A stretch of DNA of 64,000 nucleotides from sequence record MH359124. The stretch is one strand, 5' to 3'. The position numbers were made by a program, and so were the translations under genes. The notes beneath the pieces were generated by a model. That model saw only the letters and a program-made list of their open reading frames with translations, was not told the origin of the DNA and ran no database searches. This stretch comes from Escherichia phage SF. Positions 4,639 through 56,147 of this stretch are shown here, piece by piece (positions within the stretch are counted from its first letter, which is position 1; every line of letters begins with the position of its first letter).

Positions 4639-5036
4639 TGTCTAATATCAATAAACTTTATTCAGATATCGACCCAGAAATGCGTATGGATTGGAACAAG
4701 GACGTTGCTCGTTCTGTAGGACTTCGTTCTATTAAAAACAGTCTTCTTGGCATAGTGACAACTAGAAAAGGCTCACGCCCCTTCGACCCTGAATTTGGAT
4801 GCGATTTGGTCGACGAACTTTTCGAGAACATGACACCACTTACAGCCGATACGATTGAGCGTAATATCCAGGCAGCTGTTCGTAACTATGAGCCACGCAT
4901 CGACAAACTTTCTGTAAGTGTAACGCCAGTATATGATGACTATACGGTTATAGTAGAGATTAGATTTTCGGTCGTAGACAACCCTGACGATATTGAACAA
5001 ATTAAACTTCAGTTAGCGTCAAGCAATAGAGTGTAA
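4638..5036 (+). CDS. 25: gp25 baseplate wedge subunit (gpW/lysozyme-like fold)
   Basis: 132-aa ORF (T4 gp25 is 132 aa), translationally coupled to gp26 (ATGA overlap). Confidence 0.9.
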   Translation: MSNINKLYSDIDPEMRMDWNKDVARSVGLRSIKNSLLGIVTTRKGSRPFDPEFGCDLVDELFENMTPLTADTIERNIQAAVRNYEPRIDKLSVSVTPVYDDYTVIVEIRFSVVDNPDDIEQIKLQLASSNRV

Positions 5037-5116: not shown

Positions 5117-5530
5117 ATGAAGCTGGAAGATTTACAGGAAGAGTTAGACGCAGACTTAGCTATTGATATGACAAAGTTGCAATATGAGACGGCGAATAAT
5201 GTTAAGTTATACAGCAAATGGCTACGTAAGCACTCATTTATTCGTAAAGAAATGTTGCGTATAGAGACTCAGAAGAAAACTGCTCTAAAAGCAAGATTAG
5301 ACTACTACTCGGGACGAGGTGACGGTGATGAATTCAGTATGGACCGATACGAGAAATCTGAAATGAAAACTGTCCTGGCTGCCGATAAAGATGTACTTAA
5401 AATAGAGACTACTTTACAATACTGGGGAATTTTACTTGAGTTCTGTAGTGGTGCACTTGACGCAGTTAAGTCTCGTAGTTTTGCACTTAAACATATCCAG
5501 GATATGCGAGAATTTGAAGCGGGGCAATAA
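5117..5530 (+). CDS. uvsY: UvsY recombination mediator
   Basis: Translation from internal ATG 5117 gives MKLEDLQEEL...KLQYE..NNV.LYSKWL...DYYSGRGDGDEFSMDRYEKSEMKTVL, near-identical to T4 UvsY (137 aa); RBS AGAGAG upstream. Confidence 0.92.
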   Translation: MKLEDLQEELDADLAIDMTKLQYETANNVKLYSKWLRKHSFIRKEMLRIETQKKTALKARLDYYSGRGDGDEFSMDRYEKSEMKTVLAADKDVLKIETTLQYWGILLEFCSGALDAVKSRSFALKHIQDMREFEAGQ

Positions 5531-5754
5531 TGCGTTATTCAATTGAAGATGCCTTTAATAATGATGAAGAATTTGAAACTGAAATTAAATTCTTAATGGA
5601 AAAGTATCGTCTACGACGCCAGGATATTCGTATTCTGGCAGACCATCCTTGTGGCGAAGACGTCCTTTATATTAAAGGGAAGTTTGCTGGGTACATCGAC
5701 GAGTATTTTTATACAAAAGATATGGGTATCGATATGTGCATGCGATTTGTATAA
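5530..5754 (+). CDS. uvsY.-1-like small protein
   Basis: 74-aa ORF coupled to uvsY stop (ATGA overlap); position as in T4. Confidence 0.6.
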   Translation: MRYSIEDAFNNDEEFETEIKFLMEKYRLRRQDIRILADHPCGEDVLYIKGKFAGYIDEYFYTKDMGIDMCMRFV

Positions 5755-49823: not shown

Positions 49824-49893
49824 TTTACAAACTCTTGAGAGCAGAGTATAATGCTCTCATTGGATAATAAACCACCAATTGAAAGGTAATAAT

Positions 49894-50487
49894 ATGAACA
49901 CACTGAAGAAACTTGTTGAATTCATCCGCACTAAACTGGGTACTGCTATGGCTAAAAATCTAACTGTCGAAGAACAGTATAACGCAGCTGCAGATAAGTT
50001 GATTACCCAAATCAAAGAACTAAAAACGGCTTCTGTTAAATCTATTAATGAAGAAAAACGTATTCGCGAACTTGTTATTGAAAAGAATAAGCAAGCCGCT
50101 TCTAAGGAACGTGAAATTCGTAAGCTCCTGGCTGAAGGACAAGATGTTACCATGCATGCTAAGCTTGGTCTTCTGTATCGTCGAACTGCCGAACAACTTA
50201 ATACAAAAGCTGATGGGTATGCCGCTATGCGAATTGAAATTGCTCGTAAGGTGGTTGAACTTGACGACGCTCGTCAGAATCTGGCAATCAAACTCGAATA
50301 CATTCGTGAAACTCGAGCAGCTAATGCCCTTGGTATCTCTACGGCCGATGATGTAATTGAAATCGCTGCACTGACTAAGGTTGATATCGAAGACACTCTG
50401 ACTCGTGTTGAAACGTTCAATGGCACTCCAACCGGTGTCGAAACCACTTCTGCTGATGTACAAGAATATATTAACTCTTTGAAATAA
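49894..50487 (+). CDS. coiled-coil protein (possibly PspA/IM30-like; weak inference)
   Basis: ATG 49894 with RBS AAAGG; 198 aa, predominantly helical and charged heptad-like; hairpin terminator follows. Confidence 0.6.
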
Positions 50488-50495
50488 AATAATAC

Positions 50496-50517
50496 GGAGG
50501 ACTCCGGTCCTCCTTTT
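50496..50517 (+). terminator. rho-independent terminator after ORF 49894 (GGAGGAC-tccg-GTCCTCC plus TTTT)
   Basis: Perfect 7-bp stem and T-run. Confidence 0.65.
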
Positions 50518-50536
50518 GGATAATAAAGGAGTTAAC

Positions 50537-51133
50537 ATGCGAAACCAAAATAATGATATTGACTCGATGTTCGAAGAGTTCCGAAATAAGGTAAATCCAC
50601 CTACGTCTTTAGTTGATTCATTACGATATGTTGCAACTGGACGTAAATGGTACTGGTCGTCTTCTTATGAGACAACTGAATATGCAAATAACCGAAAATC
50701 TTTATTAGCCCCAGGTATTATGATTCATGATATCGGAGCTATTGCTAAACTAGTTGCAGACCATGATATTAGATTCACCGATTTCGTTGCTCCTACGTGG
50801 TCTGTTTGTTGTTTAAACACTGAATGGGAATATATCAGCGAACGCTCTGAAGATTATTATGGTTTTAGAGACAAGCTTTTAAGGTCTAACATGTTTTATA
50901 TTGATACAGAAGTTCTGGTCAATAATAAAAAATACTATTTCACTTTAATAGTCGATTCTGAAACTATGTATGAAGGCAAGCCTTTGCTTAAAAGAGTTGA
51001 TGCTTTAAGTGCTATTGATGCGCTTTATGAAACCATGGTTGTTAGTCCTAATTTCACTAACAATTTAATCCTTGAGCAATTTATTATGGAATGTAGAGAA
51101 TATGTCAAAGCCAACCCTATACATGCCAAGTAA
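50537..51133 (+). CDS. hypothetical protein (199 aa)
   Basis: ATG 50537 with RBS AAGGAG; C-terminal region contains the FIMECRE junction motif. Confidence 0.65.
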   Translation: MRNQNNDIDSMFEEFRNKVNPPTSLVDSLRYVATGRKWYWSSSYETTEYANNRKSLLAPGIMIHDIGAIAKLVADHDIRFTDFVAPTWSVCCLNTEWEYISERSEDYYGFRDKLLRSNMFYIDTEVLVNNKKYYFTLIVDSETMYEGKPLLKRVDALSAIDALYETMVVSPNFTNNLILEQFIMECREYVKANPIHAK

Positions 51134-51497
51134 GCCCTGGGCGTATGAATACAAGCGTAAATTAATCCCAAATGAAGTACTATTTGGCCCTATTTTAGCT
51201 TTAGCATTTTTAATCTTTATGATTATAGGAGCTGTTTTAGATTCTAGTGAAGTTATATCGTCTGATGCAGTGTTTTTACTTATTATAGTCGGGTCGTTTA
51301 TTGTACCATTTTTATTAATGCCTATTAACTGGGTAGGATATTGGCACCAAGGCCGTCATCACAGAGCCCGATTAAGAGAATGGAAAGTTCAGTGCGCAAA
51401 AGCCCAAGCTCAGTATGATGAAGCTGTTAAAAAGTACGAATATGAAGAAGCTATGGAATTCGTTAAGGAAATAAGATGCAAAAGCCTCAACTCTTAA
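51102..51497 (+). CDS. small membrane protein (2 TM), ECR-family paralog
   Basis: Start at 51102 (alternative 51123); TM segments ILALAFLIFMIIGAVL and VFLLIIVGSFIVPFLL; C-terminus EFVKEIRCK. Confidence 0.6.
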   Translation: MSKPTLYMPSKPWAYEYKRKLIPNEVLFGPILALAFLIFMIIGAVLDSSEVISSDAVFLLIIVGSFIVPFLLMPINWVGYWHQGRHHRARLREWKVQCAKAQAQYDEAVKKYEYEEAMEFVKEIRCKSLNS

Positions 51498-51835
51498 CCG
51501 TATGGCCTTCTCTTGGTGAGAACATTCTAATTTTTATTATGAGTATTGGCGTGGGATTTGCCTTTGGATTAGTTGGATTTCTTATTGACGGCGTTGTGTT
51601 AGGATTTATAGGGAACACTGGTGGATTCACAGACCAATGGCAGGACTTACGGTATACCCAAGCCTTTGCATCCATCGCATCATTTTGTACTGTAGTCTAT
51701 TTTTACTATGATTTTATAAACCATAACAAGAAAAATAAAAAGGTTTACGCTTCTCAAATGATTAGTTATAATGAACTCCTAGCTAGACGTGAAAATGAAA
51801 CAATAGAAAACTTTATTAAGGAATGTAGAAAATGA
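51476..51835 (+). CDS. small membrane protein (2 TM), ECR-family paralog
   Basis: TM segments; C-terminus ENFIKECRK; coupled to the downstream gene. Confidence 0.65.
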   Translation: MQKPQLLTVWPSLGENILIFIMSIGVGFAFGLVGFLIDGVVLGFIGNTGGFTDQWQDLRYTQAFASIASFCTVVYFYYDFINHNKKNKKVYASQMISYNELLARRENETIENFIKECRK

Positions 51836-52137
51836 GTAAGATTATTGAAATTAAAGTACCAGAGTTTAATGATGCCAAATCCGCTTCAGATGCAATTTAT
51901 AAACTTCTGAATCAAGCTGAACGTATCGAAGAAGAAGCAACAAAGATCGCAGACCAATATGCCGTATCATTTTCTGTAGGTGATTATGGTAGCGGTCGTA
52001 CTTATTATCCTAAGGGTGAAATCGTATCCCAGTGGATGAAAAATGAAATTGAAAATAATGGTGGCGATGTTAAGCGTGAAGGTAATGGTTACGTTATTAC
52101 TGAAGGTGCTTGGGTTTCGTCTTCTGCGTTGTGCTAA
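51832..52137 (+). CDS. small protein, member 1 of a tandem paralog triplet (C-terminus GAWVSSSALC)
   Basis: 101 aa; shares C-terminal G-W-[VI]-[SA]-S-S-x-x-C and upstream spacer GCTAAGGAA with the next two ORFs. Confidence 0.65.
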   Translation: MSKIIEIKVPEFNDAKSASDAIYKLLNQAERIEEEATKIADQYAVSFSVGDYGSGRTYYPKGEIVSQWMKNEIENNGGDVKREGNGYVITEGAWVSSSALC

Positions 52138-52146
52138 GGAACCACT

Positions 52147-52419
52147 ATGTCTAAAGAACAAACCGAACTGGCTGAAGCCGTAGCAAAAATCTATGCAGCT
52201 ATTGAGGCTGCCAAAGAAATTGCTGATAAACAAAACACAACATTCGACTTGTATCCAGCTTATGGTATGGGTGGAACATATCATTCACCCGGACAGCTTA
52301 AAGCCGATCTTGAACGTTGTACAAAAAACGGCTATGCTGAATGGGCTGACGTTTACCAATACGACTACAACCTGAGCCTCGAAACTGGTGGTTGGATCGC
52401 ATCTTCTCACACTTGCTAA
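52147..52419 (+). CDS. small protein, member 2 of the tandem paralog triplet (C-terminus GGWIASSHTC)
   Basis: 90 aa; conserved C-terminus and RBS context. Confidence 0.65.
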   Translation: MSKEQTELAEAVAKIYAAIEAAKEIADKQNTTFDLYPAYGMGGTYHSPGQLKADLERCTKNGYAEWADVYQYDYNLSLETGGWIASSHTC

Positions 52420-52428
52420 GGAAACCAT

Positions 52429-52626
52429 ATGTCTCGTGAATTAGATTGTGCTGTACGTACTGCAGTAGCTGCCCTGGAAAACCTGTTCCAAATTGCAACA
52501 GAAGAACGCGAAGAAGTTACATTATGGATTGAAGATAACGCAGGTCTGAATCTCCAGGACGCGATCTCATTATCCCACAATAGTATCACTGTTCAAGGCT
52601 GGGTATCGTCTAGTTATTCTTGCTAA
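52429..52626 (+). CDS. small protein, member 3 of the tandem paralog triplet (C-terminus QGWVSSSYSC)
   Basis: 65 aa; conserved C-terminus and RBS context. Confidence 0.65.
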   Translation: MSRELDCAVRTAVAALENLFQIATEEREEVTLWIEDNAGLNLQDAISLSHNSITVQGWVSSSYSC

Positions 52627-52630
52627 AACA

Positions 52631-52670
52631 GTTTACAACAAGATAGGGCTATGTTATAGTAGTCCTATCA
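52631..52670 (+). promoter_or_regulatory. early promoter with stem-loop (PeSL)
   Basis: GTTTACAacaagaTAGGGCTAtgtTATAGTAGTCCTAtc. Confidence 0.65.
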
Positions 52671-52688
52671 AATTAAATGGAGTCCACA

Positions 52689-52928
52689 ATGATTTATTAC
52701 GAAAGTATTGGAACCGAAGTGGTTGCTAAAACCATTACTCGTGAAAAGTTTGCAAAGATATTCGATATGCGTTATAAAAAATCTGAACACAAAGGCATTC
52801 GATTCGAAGATGCGCACTGTACAATTTGCCCTTATAATGAAGACATAAATGGTACAATCGTTCCATTGGTAGAGGCTTCACATGATGACCTCTGGGATGA
52901 ATATAATATCGCATGTCGCGAAATTTAA
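52689..52928 (+). CDS. hypothetical protein
   Basis: ATG 52689 with RBS GGAG; PeSL-type promoter upstream. Confidence 0.55.
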   Translation: MIYYESIGTEVVAKTITREKFAKIFDMRYKKSEHKGIRFEDAHCTICPYNEDINGTIVPLVEASHDDLWDEYNIACREI

Positions 52929-52953
52929 GTAATCTAAATTCGAGGAAATTATT

Positions 52954-53910
52954 ATGATGTTAGTTATTGGTTCTCGTGCACTTCACTATCATGGACTTAT
53001 TGATTCTAATGCTATCAAAAATAGTGACTGGGACTTTATTGCAGACCAAGGTTCTTGGAATGCATTCAAAAATCAAATGATGGGTGTATATGTTCATCAA
53101 GATAACCCTGATGTCCAAGTTTTCAAATGCTTCCATAATGGACGCGAAACTCATTTTGAAGCATATATTGTTCCGGCAATCACTAATGTCCGTGAATTAG
53201 TCGGTGAACTCACTCCTGAAGATTTCACATCTTCTTACGACCTTTTAAAATACGCCAAGAAAAATTTGACCAAAGACCGTTTGAACGGGTTTTACTGGGC
53301 AACTCCTGAGATATGTCTTGCAATTAAGATGTCTCATCGTTTCAAGAAAAATAATCCATTCTTTTTAAAGACTATGAACCATATTCAGTATCTTCGTGGT
53401 AAAGGTGTTACACTGAACGACGAACTTACTGAAATTATGCTGAAACGCCAGAAAGAAACCTTGAACTATGCTCACCCAGTTCTTGACACTTCTAAAAGTG
53501 CGTTCTTTAAAGATGACATCTATACATATGACCATGATACTATTCATGAAGCCATTGCACTAACAGACCGCCCGGCTTATACATTTTACATGAAAGATGG
53601 TTCTGAAGTCATGACCTCACGCGAGAAGTTTGAATCATTACCAGAAATGGTAAAATTGGCTGGTGTATACGAAGAATCATGTGTACTAGCATTAGAACGT
53701 TCTCAGATTCCTAACGACTTTAAAATTAACCCTGAAGCCAGTTTTATGATGGCATTGGAAAAAGTCTGTACAAGCATCACCTCTGGTTGGTTCCGTGAGT
53801 ATGCCTGGGAAAACTATAGCAAAGTAGTAAGTATGTACCAAAGCTTAGGACATGATGATTACGTCAAACGTTTCAAACAAAATTTCCATATGGTAAAACC
53901 TTTCAAATAA
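52954..53910 (+). CDS. 318-aa protein with putative Pol-beta-type nucleotidyltransferase motif
   Basis: RBS GAGGAA; N-terminus MMLVIGSRALHYHGLIDSNAIKNSDWDFIA fits h-G-S...D-x-D, with a possible third carboxylate in HFEAYIV. Motif-level inference only. Confidence 0.7.
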   Translation: MMLVIGSRALHYHGLIDSNAIKNSDWDFIADQGSWNAFKNQMMGVYVHQDNPDVQVFKCFHNGRETHFEAYIVPAITNVRELVGELTPEDFTSSYDLLKYAKKNLTKDRLNGFYWATPEICLAIKMSHRFKKNNPFFLKTMNHIQYLRGKGVTLNDELTEIMLKRQKETLNYAHPVLDTSKSAFFKDDIYTYDHDTIHEAIALTDRPAYTFYMKDGSEVMTSREKFESLPEMVKLAGVYEESCVLALERSQIPNDFKINPEASFMMALEKVCTSITSGWFREYAWENYSKVVSMYQSLGHDDYVKRFKQNFHMVKPFK

Positions 53911-53922
53911 CTTCACAAAACT

Positions 53923-53962
53923 GTTTACATAATTATAGGGACTATGTTATAGTAGTCCTATT
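53923..53962 (+). promoter_or_regulatory. early promoter with stem-loop (PeSL)
   Basis: GTTTACAtaattaTAGGGACTAtgtTATAGTAGTCCTAtt. Confidence 0.65.
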
Positions 53963-53981
53963 AAAACATGAGGAGAATATT

Positions 53982-54287
53982 ATGAAATTAACAGAAACCA
54001 ATCGAATCGGTCTTTTAACAATATTTGCATCACCTTTTTACGCAGCTCTTTCTGTTGCAGTATTACAAAAGGCCTACGATATGGATGGAGTTACTGGTTT
54101 TGTATTCTTATCGCCGTTTTTGCTATTCGTTGGAGCATTGTTATTATACGCCACGACTAGTTTCGACCATAATGTCTGGGTCAATTATAAATGTAAATTG
54201 TCTGAAGAAGAACACGCAGAAGCTCGTAAAAAAGCTATTGAATCTACCAATCTAGAAAATTTCATTAAAGAATGTCGAGGAAAATAA
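53982..54287 (+). CDS. small membrane protein (2 TM), ECR-family paralog
   Basis: RBS GAGGAG; TM segments; C-terminus ENFIKECRGK. Confidence 0.65.
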   Translation: MKLTETNRIGLLTIFASPFYAALSVAVLQKAYDMDGVTGFVFLSPFLLFVGALLLYATTSFDHNVWVNYKCKLSEEEHAEARKKAIESTNLENFIKECRGK

Positions 54288-54288
54288 T

Positions 54289-54975
54289 ATGAATAGTTCT
54301 AAAGTGTTTAATAGTCAAGCTCGTGCAGTAGGTGGTTTTGCTCATGCGATTAAAAACGAGCAGATTAAAAACGAGCCTATGTTCTTTAACTGCGATTTGA
54401 ATTTTGCTTTTGATAATGGCGGTCCAATTACTCGTAGCTTTATCCAAAATCTTCCTGACGATTGGAAAGACTCGGATGTAGTATTTGATTCACGAGTCCA
54501 CATGCTGATGCCTGGTTGGTATCCTGCTATTCCTGGATATCACCATGATGATGTTCCTCGCCCTGATATTCCAGTTGGTCAACACTTTATTACTGCAGGA
54601 CAACCTGATTATGACAATCCTCGCTATTTGTCTGAACATATTCTTGGTCTTGTTAACGCTGATGTGTGTCCTACTCATTTTGCAACAGGAGCTGCAGAGT
54701 TCAGTCAGATTCCTGATGGCGAACTTATCTATCGCCAGTGGCACAAAGAAGTCCTCGAAAAAATTGAAAAAGGCGAACTAGAGAAATGGGAAGCTCCAGA
54801 TCGTACTCTTCTTCAGTTTGATTGGCAAACATGGCACACTGGTTCTCGTGCAATTAGTAATGGATGGCGTTGGTTCGGACGTGTATCTCGTAATACAGGC
54901 CGAGTTAAAAAGATTACCAATGAAATTCGTGTCAATGCTCAAGTTTATCTGGAATTCCCTATGGAAGGCTGGTAA
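54289..54975 (+). CDS. 228-aa His/Asp/Trp-rich protein (possible metal-binding enzyme)
   Basis: RBS GAGGAA; motifs PGYHHDD and CPTHF; no confident family assignment. Confidence 0.65.
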   Translation: MNSSKVFNSQARAVGGFAHAIKNEQIKNEPMFFNCDLNFAFDNGGPITRSFIQNLPDDWKDSDVVFDSRVHMLMPGWYPAIPGYHHDDVPRPDIPVGQHFITAGQPDYDNPRYLSEHILGLVNADVCPTHFATGAAEFSQIPDGELIYRQWHKEVLEKIEKGELEKWEAPDRTLLQFDWQTWHTGSRAISNGWRWFGRVSRNTGRVKKITNEIRVNAQVYLEFPMEGW

Positions 54976-55466
54976 TGATACATAAAATTCACTGGACAAA
55001 CATGGACGATGGCGACGAAGGTATTTCATATTATTCTATAGATTGGACAGGATGTCCATCCTACTTAGTGAAACATATTTGCCAAGAATTTAAAATCGAC
55101 CAGCCAGCAGGTATTATCGTGAACAGATACATTAATGGATATCAACCTATCGATGAAGTAATACGAACAACTCAAGCTGAGCTTGAAAGGTTTTTCAATA
55201 AGTGTCAATGGATAACAGGATGGATTATATTTGTACCGTCTATATGGTTTTTCAGTACTAAGGTGAGTTCTTTCGGTTTTGTTGATATTATTGCTATCTT
55301 ATTAGCATCTAGTATCATAAGTGTTGTTGGTGGCATCATTGGCGGCGGTACCGCCGCCATCATTATTAATCTTATTAAAAGTAGTTTACAAGAACATAAA
55401 GACAAGATAAAGGCCAAGAATAATGAAGTTGAACGTTTTATTACCGAATGCAGGAATTTGAGATGA
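54975..55466 (+). CDS. membrane protein with N-terminal soluble domain and 2 TM, ECR-family paralog
   Basis: C-terminus ERFITECRNLR; TM segments WIIFVPSIWFF and IIAILLASSIISVVGGIIGG; ATGA coupling. Confidence 0.65.
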   Translation: MIHKIHWTNMDDGDEGISYYSIDWTGCPSYLVKHICQEFKIDQPAGIIVNRYINGYQPIDEVIRTTQAELERFFNKCQWITGWIIFVPSIWFFSTKVSSFGFVDIIAILLASSIISVVGGIIGGGTAAIIINLIKSSLQEHKDKIKAKNNEVERFITECRNLR

Positions 55467-55699
55467 GTATAGCAATTTACATTAAATCAGAATCATGTGA
55501 TTCTTATCTGTACACATACGATAAAGATGTGTCAGAAGAAAAAATCAAAGACGACCTTAATATGGACCTTGATTTGTTCCGTCCTATTTCAGATTACAAA
55601 CTAGCATTCTCCGATAGCGAGCGTCCTGATAAAGAAACTCGCATTGAAGAATTTATGTCCGAATTAATGGCCAAATCATGGGACCGAGATGATGAGTAA
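55463..55699 (+). CDS. hypothetical acidic protein
   Basis: ATG 55463 with RBS AGGAA, overlapping the upstream stop; alternative start 55448. Confidence 0.5.
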   Translation: MSIAIYIKSESCDSYLYTYDKDVSEEKIKDDLNMDLDLFRPISDYKLAFSDSERPDKETRIEEFMSELMAKSWDRDDE

Positions 55700-56147
55700 G
55701 AAAAATAAAGTGAAAGAACTATCAGCCGGTATTATTTTCATGACAAAAGATAAAGAGTTATTCATGGGCCGTGTGACTGGTTCTCGTCCTAAAGGTTCTT
55801 TAACTCATCGGTGGGATATTCCTAAAGGCCGTGTCGAACCTGGCGAATCTCCTATTGAAGCCGCTATTCGTGAATGCGAAGAAGAAACTGGGTTTACACA
55901 ATATGACCCTGCCTTCCTGAAAGACCTAGGTGAACATCATTACTCAGACAATAAGAATATTCATCTGTTCCTATATACCATCCCTGTAGAGCACGAGCAA
56001 TTCAGAAACAGTGTTTGTAATTCCTATCATACATTCCCAGACGGACGACAGATTCCTGAATTTGATGCATTCGCTTTAATTAAACCTTCTCAATGGGAAT
56101 ATGTAATGGGCAAATCATTATATAAGGTGCTCACTACCCTCCTATAA
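55689..56147 (+). CDS. nudE: NudE Nudix hydrolase
   Basis: Nudix box GRVEPGESPIEAAIRECEEETGF; 152 aa; directly upstream of e, as T4 nudE (e.1). Confidence 0.88.
   Translation: MMSKKNKVKELSAGIIFMTKDKELFMGRVTGSRPKGSLTHRWDIPKGRVEPGESPIEAAIRECEEETGFTQYDPAFLKDLGEHHYSDNKNIHLFLYTIPVEHEQFRNSVCNSYHTFPDGRQIPEFDAFALIKPSQWEYVMGKSLYKVLTTLL

Follow-up and report, generated by a model that had tools for sequence, protein, structure and literature searches.

In a stretch of 64,000 nucleotides (nt) from Escherichia phage SF (sequence record MH359124; the whole stretch is called the window here), an RB69-like T4-type phage of the genus Mosigvirus, five early genes end in similar short peptides of the type ENFIKECR. 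Our analysis makes it quite likely that this repeat is a protein-level C-terminal motif of T4-like early proteins with an embedded ribosome-binding site and that the motif may serve as a shared docking or assembly helix. The motif carriers, named according to the RB69 annotation and PHROG profiles, are e.5, e.4, e.3, the homologue of RB69ORF133c (in the following ORF133c) and e.2; all five sit between e.6 and nudE/e (lysozyme) and are co-oriented, overlapping and coupled in translation (Table 1). The genes e.2 to e.5 have long been known in T4 and have remained for decades genes of unknown function in the best-studied phage; the C-terminal motif that they share was not found described in a literature search of limited extent. 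A strongly conserved shared C-terminal peptide provides a common handle on these genes and suggests that their products act jointly or have one target.

All five peptide copies of the original prediction were recovered within 3 nt of the positions it had given. They are located inside open reading frames (ORFs), 1-11 residues before the stop, and at the five junctions of the window the distance from the end of the Arg codon to the next start codon ranges from -1 to +10 nt. The strict pattern F[IV]x[ED]CR matches four times in the six frames of the window, compared with 0.10 matches expected from residue composition and a maximum of one in 300 residue shuffles. All four strict matches fall within a 4.4-kb stretch on the same strand and lie at most 11 residues from a stop, and the pattern was found neither elsewhere in the window nor in RB69 1-66,000, which includes most other early genes. 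Because the counts exceed chance and RB69 1-66,000 contains none, the peptide repeat is genuine and restricted to this cluster of genes.

At the nucleotide level the picture is different from the conserved DNA motif of about 24 nt that had been proposed. With up to 3 mismatches allowed, its consensus retrieves the copies of e.3 and ORF133c alone (2/5), and a manual count from the codon table gave 4 mismatches for e.5, 5 for e.2 and 8 or more for e.4. A repeat finder pairs only e.5 with e.3 (18 nt, 89%), amid dozens of short repeats at chance level. The copies of e.3 and ORF133c encode the same octapeptide ENFIKECR and differ in 4 of 8 codons, all synonymously. For a codon test we compared positions at which two copies have the same residue, with expectations based on the codon usage of 44 long window ORFs. 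Identical codons were found in 30 of 52 such comparisons between the window copies (28.8 expected from codon usage) and in 319 of 581 among 17 instances from five genera (307 expected). As codon identity equals the expectation, there is no nucleotide conservation between copies beyond the amino acids and codon bias. Between copies this is the pattern that the original prediction had named as speaking against a DNA junction element, conserved amino acids with free synonymous variation, and it supports its alternative of a protein-level C-terminal tag, whose amino acids are conserved while the synonymous sites vary between copies and genera as codon usage allows. The DNA copies look alike because the same residues are encoded in an A+T-rich genome with strong codon bias. 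Their location at gene junctions follows from the C-terminal position of the motif and the tight end-to-end packing of the genes, many of which overlap by ATGA. The case shows that a peptide motif, codon bias and an embedded ribosome-binding site together can mimic a DNA junction cassette.

Instances of the motif were found in Mosigvirus, Tequatrovirus (RB51, T4), Dhakavirus, Gaprivervirus, Kanagawavirus and one unclassified T4-like contig, and the consensus across orthologues is hydrophobic-x-x-[F/W]-[I/V]-x-x-C-R. Three to four motif-ending genes per cluster are present in JS10 (Dhakavirus), SP18 (Gaprivervirus), Entb_45 together with three IMG/VR contigs (Kanagawavirus-like) and, in the same cluster, a further T4-like contig of 171 kb. 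Outside the motif the carrier proteins are only 20-50% identical between genera, and the RB51 and T4 proteins share 26-49% identity with those of the window. The motif of T4 reads EKFVKECR in e.5, KFVKESR in e.4, EFVIDCR in e.3 and NFITECR in e.2, with EFV(S/I)DCR as the common form of e.3 in RB51 and T4. F182, E185, C186 and R187 do not vary among 13 e.5 sequences. For e.2, an exhaustive HMMER search yielded representatives of 28-37% identity that all end in [F/W]-I-[K/E]-x-C-R-[K/N/R], and the alignment of the e.2 family (24-29% identity) has nine invariant columns (I2, W7, D11, G16, W24, G124, I156, C159 and R160), three of which (I156, C159 and R160) belong to the motif. When the best conserved peptide pattern of this alignment was chosen automatically, the choice fell on the motif. 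In K-E-C-R the Glu is dispensable, and orthologues have G, D, R, Q or N in its place (G/D/R in most e.2 representatives, D in T4-type e.3, Q/N in Kanagawavirus).

Word-indexed protein searches with e.5 and e.3 returned close relatives only, and a profile search with the 45-residue tail returned only fragments of e.2, e.4 and e.5. A scan of IMG/VR with E-x-F-I-K-E-C-R gave 42 matches; most are internal to unrelated proteins, in about the number estimated for chance, and only a few are C-terminal in T4-like contigs. As a side observation, e.2 is intact in RB51 and in the window and is split by a frameshift in T4 (OL964735.1, 1860-2347) into ORFs of 102 and 63 amino acids, the second of which retains one transmembrane segment and the motif.

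The second layer of information in the motif is the ribosome-binding site of the following gene. Translational coupling with a Shine-Dalgarno sequence inside the upstream coding sequence and ATGA-type overlaps is common in the early gene clusters of T4. We searched 19 junctions for the best anti-Shine-Dalgarno match upstream of the downstream start, and in 15 of them it overlaps codons of the motif. The commonest forms are AAGGA from Lys-Glu (AAG GAA), GAGGA from Glu-Glu and AGGAA, made up of an AGG Arg codon and the base after it. The position of these sites slides with the spacing to the next start, from the Lys-Glu codons to the Arg codon and finally past the motif. The idea that the motif supplies the downstream Shine-Dalgarno sequence applies fully at two junctions of the window, where AAGGA of the Lys-Glu codons serves e.3 (51465-51469, in the e.4 motif) or lies 9 nt before the next ATG (51818-51822, in the e.3 motif). 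It applies in part at two others, AGGAA at 55452-55456 in e.2, which comes from the Arg codon and the base after it and lies 6 nt before the next ATG, and GAGGA at 54277-54281, which is the conserved ribosome-binding site of ORF132c and lies mostly past the motif of ORF133c. From e.5 to e.4 the match is weak.

In line with this, AAG makes up 6 of the 11 Lys codons of the motif (21% genome-wide) and AGA/AGG 9 of the 16 Arg codons (24% genome-wide). The apparent exception at the e.2-nudE junction of Entb_45 results from a mis-annotated start of nudE (~5476-5542 in the Entb_45 sequence used): an in-frame ATG located 66 nt upstream, one base past the Arg codon of the e.2 motif, restores the conserved N-terminus MAVIKKEVSAGIMFFTEDKELFMGRV, and the corrected start has AAAGGA 7 nt upstream. 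We also considered the ATG within GA-ATG-Y of the Glu-Cys codons as start of the next gene, but on manual reading the frame usually meets a stop or is without a Shine-Dalgarno sequence; this ATG is in frame with the next gene because of the geometry of the ATGA overlap.

These data have to be weighed in view of the possibility that the repeat is a coupling cassette at the RNA level, in which selection acts on the downstream Shine-Dalgarno sequence and translation-initiation region and the peptide is a by-product. Besides the overlap at 15 of 19 junctions and the enrichment of AAG and AGR codons, a manual tally with the corrected nudE start found an AGGA-type core in codons 6-7 at 10 of 11 junctions at which the next ATG follows no more than 4 nt past the Arg codon, and at 0 of 8 junctions at which it is farther away. 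Among five Mosigviruses, which are few and related genomes, the third positions of the motif codons are almost invariant (1 of 40 sites varies, versus 19% of other third positions and 12.5% in the last eight codons of motif-less neighbour genes), and in the 24 nt before motif-following starts 1 of 120 sites varies, versus 18 of 215 before other starts. The near-invariant synonymous sites within Mosigvirus therefore reflect a real constraint at the nucleotide level, to which selection on the RNA contributes. This local constraint is junction-specific and not common to the copies, as expected of a translation-initiation region superimposed on a conserved peptide.

Several observations argue against the peptide as a mere by-product. 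The codons for F, I/V and C add nothing to the Shine-Dalgarno sequence, yet they encode the most conserved residues. Between copies and genera the synonymous codons are free (TTT/TTC, ATT/ATC/GTT/GTG/GTA, TGT/TGC and five Arg codons), and substitutions are conservative at the protein level (I/V, F/W, E/D). The Shine-Dalgarno sequence moves relative to the motif with spacing, and the motif persists without it: at junctions with a distance of 10-31 nt to the next start, the Shine-Dalgarno sequence lies past the motif and codons 6-7 read AAAGAA, GACCAA or AAACAA. Such a position was found at the ORF133c-ORF132c junction, in e.5 of JS10 and Entb_45 and in a soluble family of Kanagawavirus, and in both e.5 genes and the e.5-like gene of the 171-kb T4-like contig the motif is kept with the next start 22-31 nt away. 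The ribosome-binding site alone does not account for the conservation, since F, I/V, C and R are kept through different codons. We consider a cassette that acts primarily at the RNA level unlikely. From the coupling cassette that the original prediction had offered as an option, the embedded or abutting Shine-Dalgarno sequence at most junctions and the biased codons (AAG, AGG, AGA) remain; a fixed position and a dependence of the motif on it do not.

In the reading as a protein-level motif, the ribosome-binding site of the downstream coupled gene is contained in the variable codons of the motif (Lys-Glu as AAG-GAA, Lys-Gly as AAA-GGA, Arg as AGG/AGA) or follows just after it, and it constrains the synonymous sites locally. 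The arrangement resembles other embedded Shine-Dalgarno systems in that the 3' codons of the upstream gene are biased and give AAGGA, GAGGA or AGGAA 5-10 nt before the start; it differs from them in that the motif peptide is common to several non-homologous proteins and survives without a Shine-Dalgarno sequence.

Common ancestry would be another source of a shared peptide, and the motif could be a functionless relic of serial tandem duplication of one small membrane-protein gene. The carriers are not all homologous, and similarity outside the motif is absent or marginal between groups. These are the soluble e.5-type proteins (window, RB51, JS10_0129, Entb_196), the two-transmembrane proteins e.3, e.4 and ORF133c, e.2 with its own N-terminal domain and two hydrophobic segments, and a soluble family of 92-99 amino acids in Kanagawavirus-like phages, which is also motif-ended. 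Nevertheless, e.3 and e.4 both begin with M-x-K-P-x-L, have two transmembrane segments and resemble each other weakly over the full length (E = 0.005-0.15), with a match of the e.3-like protein of SP18 to e.4 of the window at E = 0.005. Likewise, the e.3-like protein of JS10 weakly matches e.2 of the same phage (E = 3e-4), and the C-terminal half of ORF133c weakly resembles the e.2 family (phrog_2203, E = 0.0017). A neutral relic, however, would decay like the rest of the proteins with their 20-50% identity, whereas the motif is among the only invariant columns; in addition, it ends e.5 and the 92-99-residue family, which have no detectable similarity to the membrane carriers. Taken together, a functionless relic appears quite improbable. 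An exchange of protein bodies behind a constant tail was also considered for the 92-99-residue carriers and ruled out, as these are homologous throughout.

The original prediction had further suggested that the copies are short homology linkers, so that recombination between them shuffles, deletes or duplicates the intervening genes. The location of the motif at gene boundaries in a hyperplastic region fits this suggestion, as do the unrelated bodies of the carriers, which imply that the tail-coding segment was once joined to different genes. Moreover, the whole block between e.3 and e.2 is absent from T4-type phages and present in the other genera, and the left edge of this difference abuts the e.3 motif; its right edge at the start of e.2, however, has no motif copy. 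At the DNA level no two copies match better than over 18 nt at 89%, and the synonymous sites are randomised between copies, so that there is no sign of gene conversion. JS10 and Entb_45, which are without e.4, keep the post-motif tail of the e.5 type, which a motif-to-motif crossover would not leave behind.

Gene content between the copies does vary among relatives, but every mapped indel breaks outside the motif, and no breakpoint of an indel or replacement falls into it among the relatives examined; the breakpoints lie at a repeat of the PeSL type (promoter-early stem-loop), inside e.3 or at the ribosome-binding site of ORF132c. For Mosigvirus the matched spans cluster at ~5.2 kb and ~5.47 kb among the matches listed. 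TU01 and PNJ-9, the two genomes of the longer form that were examined, have an extra gene of 201 nt between the DUF7275 gene and ORF133c, with insertion breakpoints at 53923-53929 of the window, inside the second copy of the PeSL-like repeat. In p000v (4989-5001 in the sequence used), phiE142 and PTE-Eco05, e.3 has lost an internal segment equivalent to 51493-51742 of the window, and the remnant of the last 30 codons is not annotated as a gene. In JS10, SP18 and Entb_45, unrelated genes without the motif take the slot of ORF133c; the right boundary of this slot is the conserved ribosome-binding site of ORF132c itself (GAGGAAAATAWT). In view of these breakpoints we regard homology linkers as very improbable.

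A genuine shuffling element is located 1-2 kb from the motif genes and serves as contrast. The two copies of the PeSL-like repeat (52627-52690 and 53915-53975) consist of an early promoter of the form TTTACA-N17/18-TATAGT and an overlapping stem-loop, and they share a 27-nt core that is 93% identical. This repeated promoter/stem-loop matches the PeSL cassettes of T4-type phages, which are nucleotide-conserved, combine an intergenic sigma-70-type promoter with a stem-loop and coincide with indels between close relatives (Arbiol et al., 2010, PMC2839356; Comeau et al., 2014, PMC4122927). Like a PeSL, for which a role in modular shuffling has been proposed, the motif is a short conserved sequence that recurs at gene boundaries in a hyperplastic region of T4-like phages; unlike a PeSL, it is coding, is conserved between copies only as amino acids and does not coincide with breakpoints. 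Strong plus-strand promoter-like sites around and inside the block were found at 49824, 52632 and 53924 and at no motif copy. One minus-strand promoter match (9/12) overlaps the copy of ORF133c, and such matches are near chance (37 found, 26 expected). A terminator-like hairpin with a strong T run occurs only once, at 50496-50513, and at no motif copy.

Finally, a capsid-targeting-like signal or a site of the prohead protease gp21 is the least probable explanation of all and can almost be dismissed: gp21 cuts after L/I-x-E, residues F7, I8 and E10 of the capsid targeting peptide play a part in targeting or processing (PMC9026906), the motif resembles the internal-protein peptide MKTYQEFI(T/A)E and contains I-x-E, FITE-x-R of e.2 is identical to a stretch of the targeting sequence, and a loose motif pattern picked up the internal-protein genes of the window, which begin MKTYQEFITEAR (57512), but the striking likeness of FITECR to the targeting sequence fails because the motif is C-terminal in all instances (at least 19) and the targeting sequence N-terminal, because the Glu is dispensable (G, D, R, Q or N in many orthologues, including the D of T4-type e.3, and Asp at this position blocks processing; PMC9026906), and because most carriers are integral membrane proteins, which we judge unlikely head contents; cleavage at the motif would also take off merely 2-5 residues.

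As a known system, the capsid targeting sequence of T4, MKTYQEFIAE, is nevertheless instructive: it is an N-terminal peptide on soluble, head-packaged internal proteins and is removed by the protease (reviewed in PMC9026906). Both peptides comprise about 10 residues on unrelated, fast-evolving T4-like proteins and share F-I-x-E as core and a hydrophobic residue at position -3 relative to Phe. The motif differs in its C-terminal position, its occurrence mostly on membrane proteins, its dispensable Glu and its conserved Cys-Arg. Genes resembling those of internal proteins are present at ~56667, 57512 and ~58086; they start with MKTY[Q/S]EF[I/L] and flank e and denV as in other T-even phages.

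For the C-terminal motif itself, a helical structure is suggested by several features. In 19 of 22 tails (manual count on the tail alignment) a hydrophobic residue precedes Phe by three positions, and the spacing of this residue, Phe, Ile/Val and Cys at i, i+3, i+4 and i+7 therefore places them on one helix face. In the AlphaFold2 (AF2) model of e.5 the motif is part of a C-terminal helix (residues 177-192; predicted local distance difference test, pLDDT, 64; predicted template modelling score, pTM, 0.67), and in that of e.2 the second transmembrane helix runs on as a single helix (102-161) with the motif at its end (pLDDT 75, pTM 0.42), so that in this model it reaches beyond the membrane-spanning stretch. 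The motif would form a short C-terminal amphipathic helix at the end of several early proteins encoded between e.6 and nudE, and as the tails are rich in Lys and Arg, they should be cytoplasmic according to the positive-inside rule. From the sequences and the models we infer a shared docking or assembly helix, by which co-expressed membrane and soluble proteins would bind one partner or each other, with Cys-Arg as putative key contacts. It is tempting to go further, albeit tentatively, and to regard the motif as a portable C-terminal tag. It would bring five or more unrelated early proteins (two-transmembrane proteins, e.2, soluble e.5 and the soluble 92-99-residue family) together on the cytoplasmic side of the inner membrane, at a common partner or in a common complex; candidates for such a partner are a host protein and e.6, the highly conserved neighbour. 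If true, the portable tag would correspond, in early infection, to the capsid targeting sequence.

A number of points weigh against this interpretation of the repeat as a functional peptide. Cys is not indispensable, as the e.4 lineage and certain orthologues of e.3 and e.5 have I, S or V instead. The comparisons between orthologues are phylogenetically non-independent. Scans of the five carrier proteins with Pfam and NCBIfam gave nothing above threshold, and their PHROGs matches are all families of unknown function. The AF2 models are of moderate quality, and a Foldseek search of the e.5 model against the PDB gave no match at E<=0.001. In addition to the contribution of RNA-level selection described above, RNA-level and peptide selection are not fully separable at the Lys-Glu and Arg codons.

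The assignment of the carrier genes is based on several lines of annotation. Over its full length the region 50500-55700 of the window is 96.5% identical to Escherichia phage PHB12 and 95.3% to RB69. The products of e.2, e.3, e.4 and e.5 are full-length members of PHROG families 2203, 2330, 2604 and 2607, in agreement with the RB69 and T4 annotations. For e.4 the profile match is full length from the ATG at 51102, and the T4 annotation has the same start. Identity to the RB51 proteins is 47% for e.5 and 38.5% for e.3. Among database relatives, newer Pfam accessions (PF26896, PF26873 and PF26876) have been assigned. The name "sulfurtransferase", which some GenBank records give to e.3 and e.4 of T4, is unsupported by Pfam, NCBIfam and PHROG profiles.

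Table 1. Motif carrier genes and motif copies in the window.
Feature	Position	Strand	Remarks
e.5 homologue	50537..51133	+	soluble, 198 amino acids; RB69 annotation; phrog_2607, E = 5e-95
e.4 homologue	51102..51497	+	two-transmembrane, 131 amino acids; phrog_2604, E = 3e-62
e.3 homologue	51476..51835	+	two-transmembrane, 119 amino acids; phrog_2330, E = 1e-49
RB69ORF133c homologue	53982..54287	+	two-transmembrane, 101 amino acids; phrog_9798, E = 7.5e-67
e.2 homologue	54975..55466	+	small N-terminal domain and two transmembrane helices, 163 amino acids; phrog_2203, E = 1e-52
Motif copy 1, e.5, LEQFIMECR	51074-51097	+	11 residues before stop; e.4 start codon 51102
Motif copy 2 (variant), e.4, MEFVKEIR	51453-51476	+	Ile in place of Cys; e.3 ATG 51476 overlaps Arg codon
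Motif copy 3, e.3, ENFIKECR	51806-51829	+	next ATG 51832
Motif copy 4, ORF133c homologue, ENFIKECR	54255-54278	+	ORF132c ATG 54289
Motif copy 5, e.2, ERFITECR	55431-55454	+	next ATG 55463

The gene e.6 (49894-50487), which precedes the cluster, encodes a highly conserved, helical-looking sequence of phrog_1203 (function unknown). It is located upstream of the motif genes wherever the sequence extended that far, namely in RB69, RB51, p000v, JS10, Entb_45 and the 171-kb T4-like contig. The strong terminator-like hairpin already mentioned follows e.6. The helical sequence had suggested a PspA-like protein, an idea that was dropped as it found no support from Pfam or PDB sequences.

Some further repeats were observed in and near the block. 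The resemblance of the motif to the RegA operator is poor. The tandem small genes at 51832-52137, 52147-52419 and 52429-52626 all end in G-W-[V/I]-[S/A]-S-S-x-x-C directly before the stop, and the first two of their junctions have a conserved TAAGGAAnCAnTATGTCT (48-nt repeat, 71%); relatives of these genes are present in JS10, SP18, Entb_45 and the 171-kb T4-like contig and belong to phrog_899 and phrog_4882 (function unknown). Inside e.2, a G+C-rich perfect hairpin (TGGCGGCGGTACCGCCGCCA, 55340-55359) with 8 pairs, 7 of them G-C, codes for the Gly-rich part of the second transmembrane segment and is unusual for such an A+T-rich genome. The ORF132c homologue has, close to its 5' end (54348-54376), an exact 14-nt tandem duplication (two copies of GATTAAAAACGAGC with a spacing of 15 nt), which encodes IKNEQIKNE.

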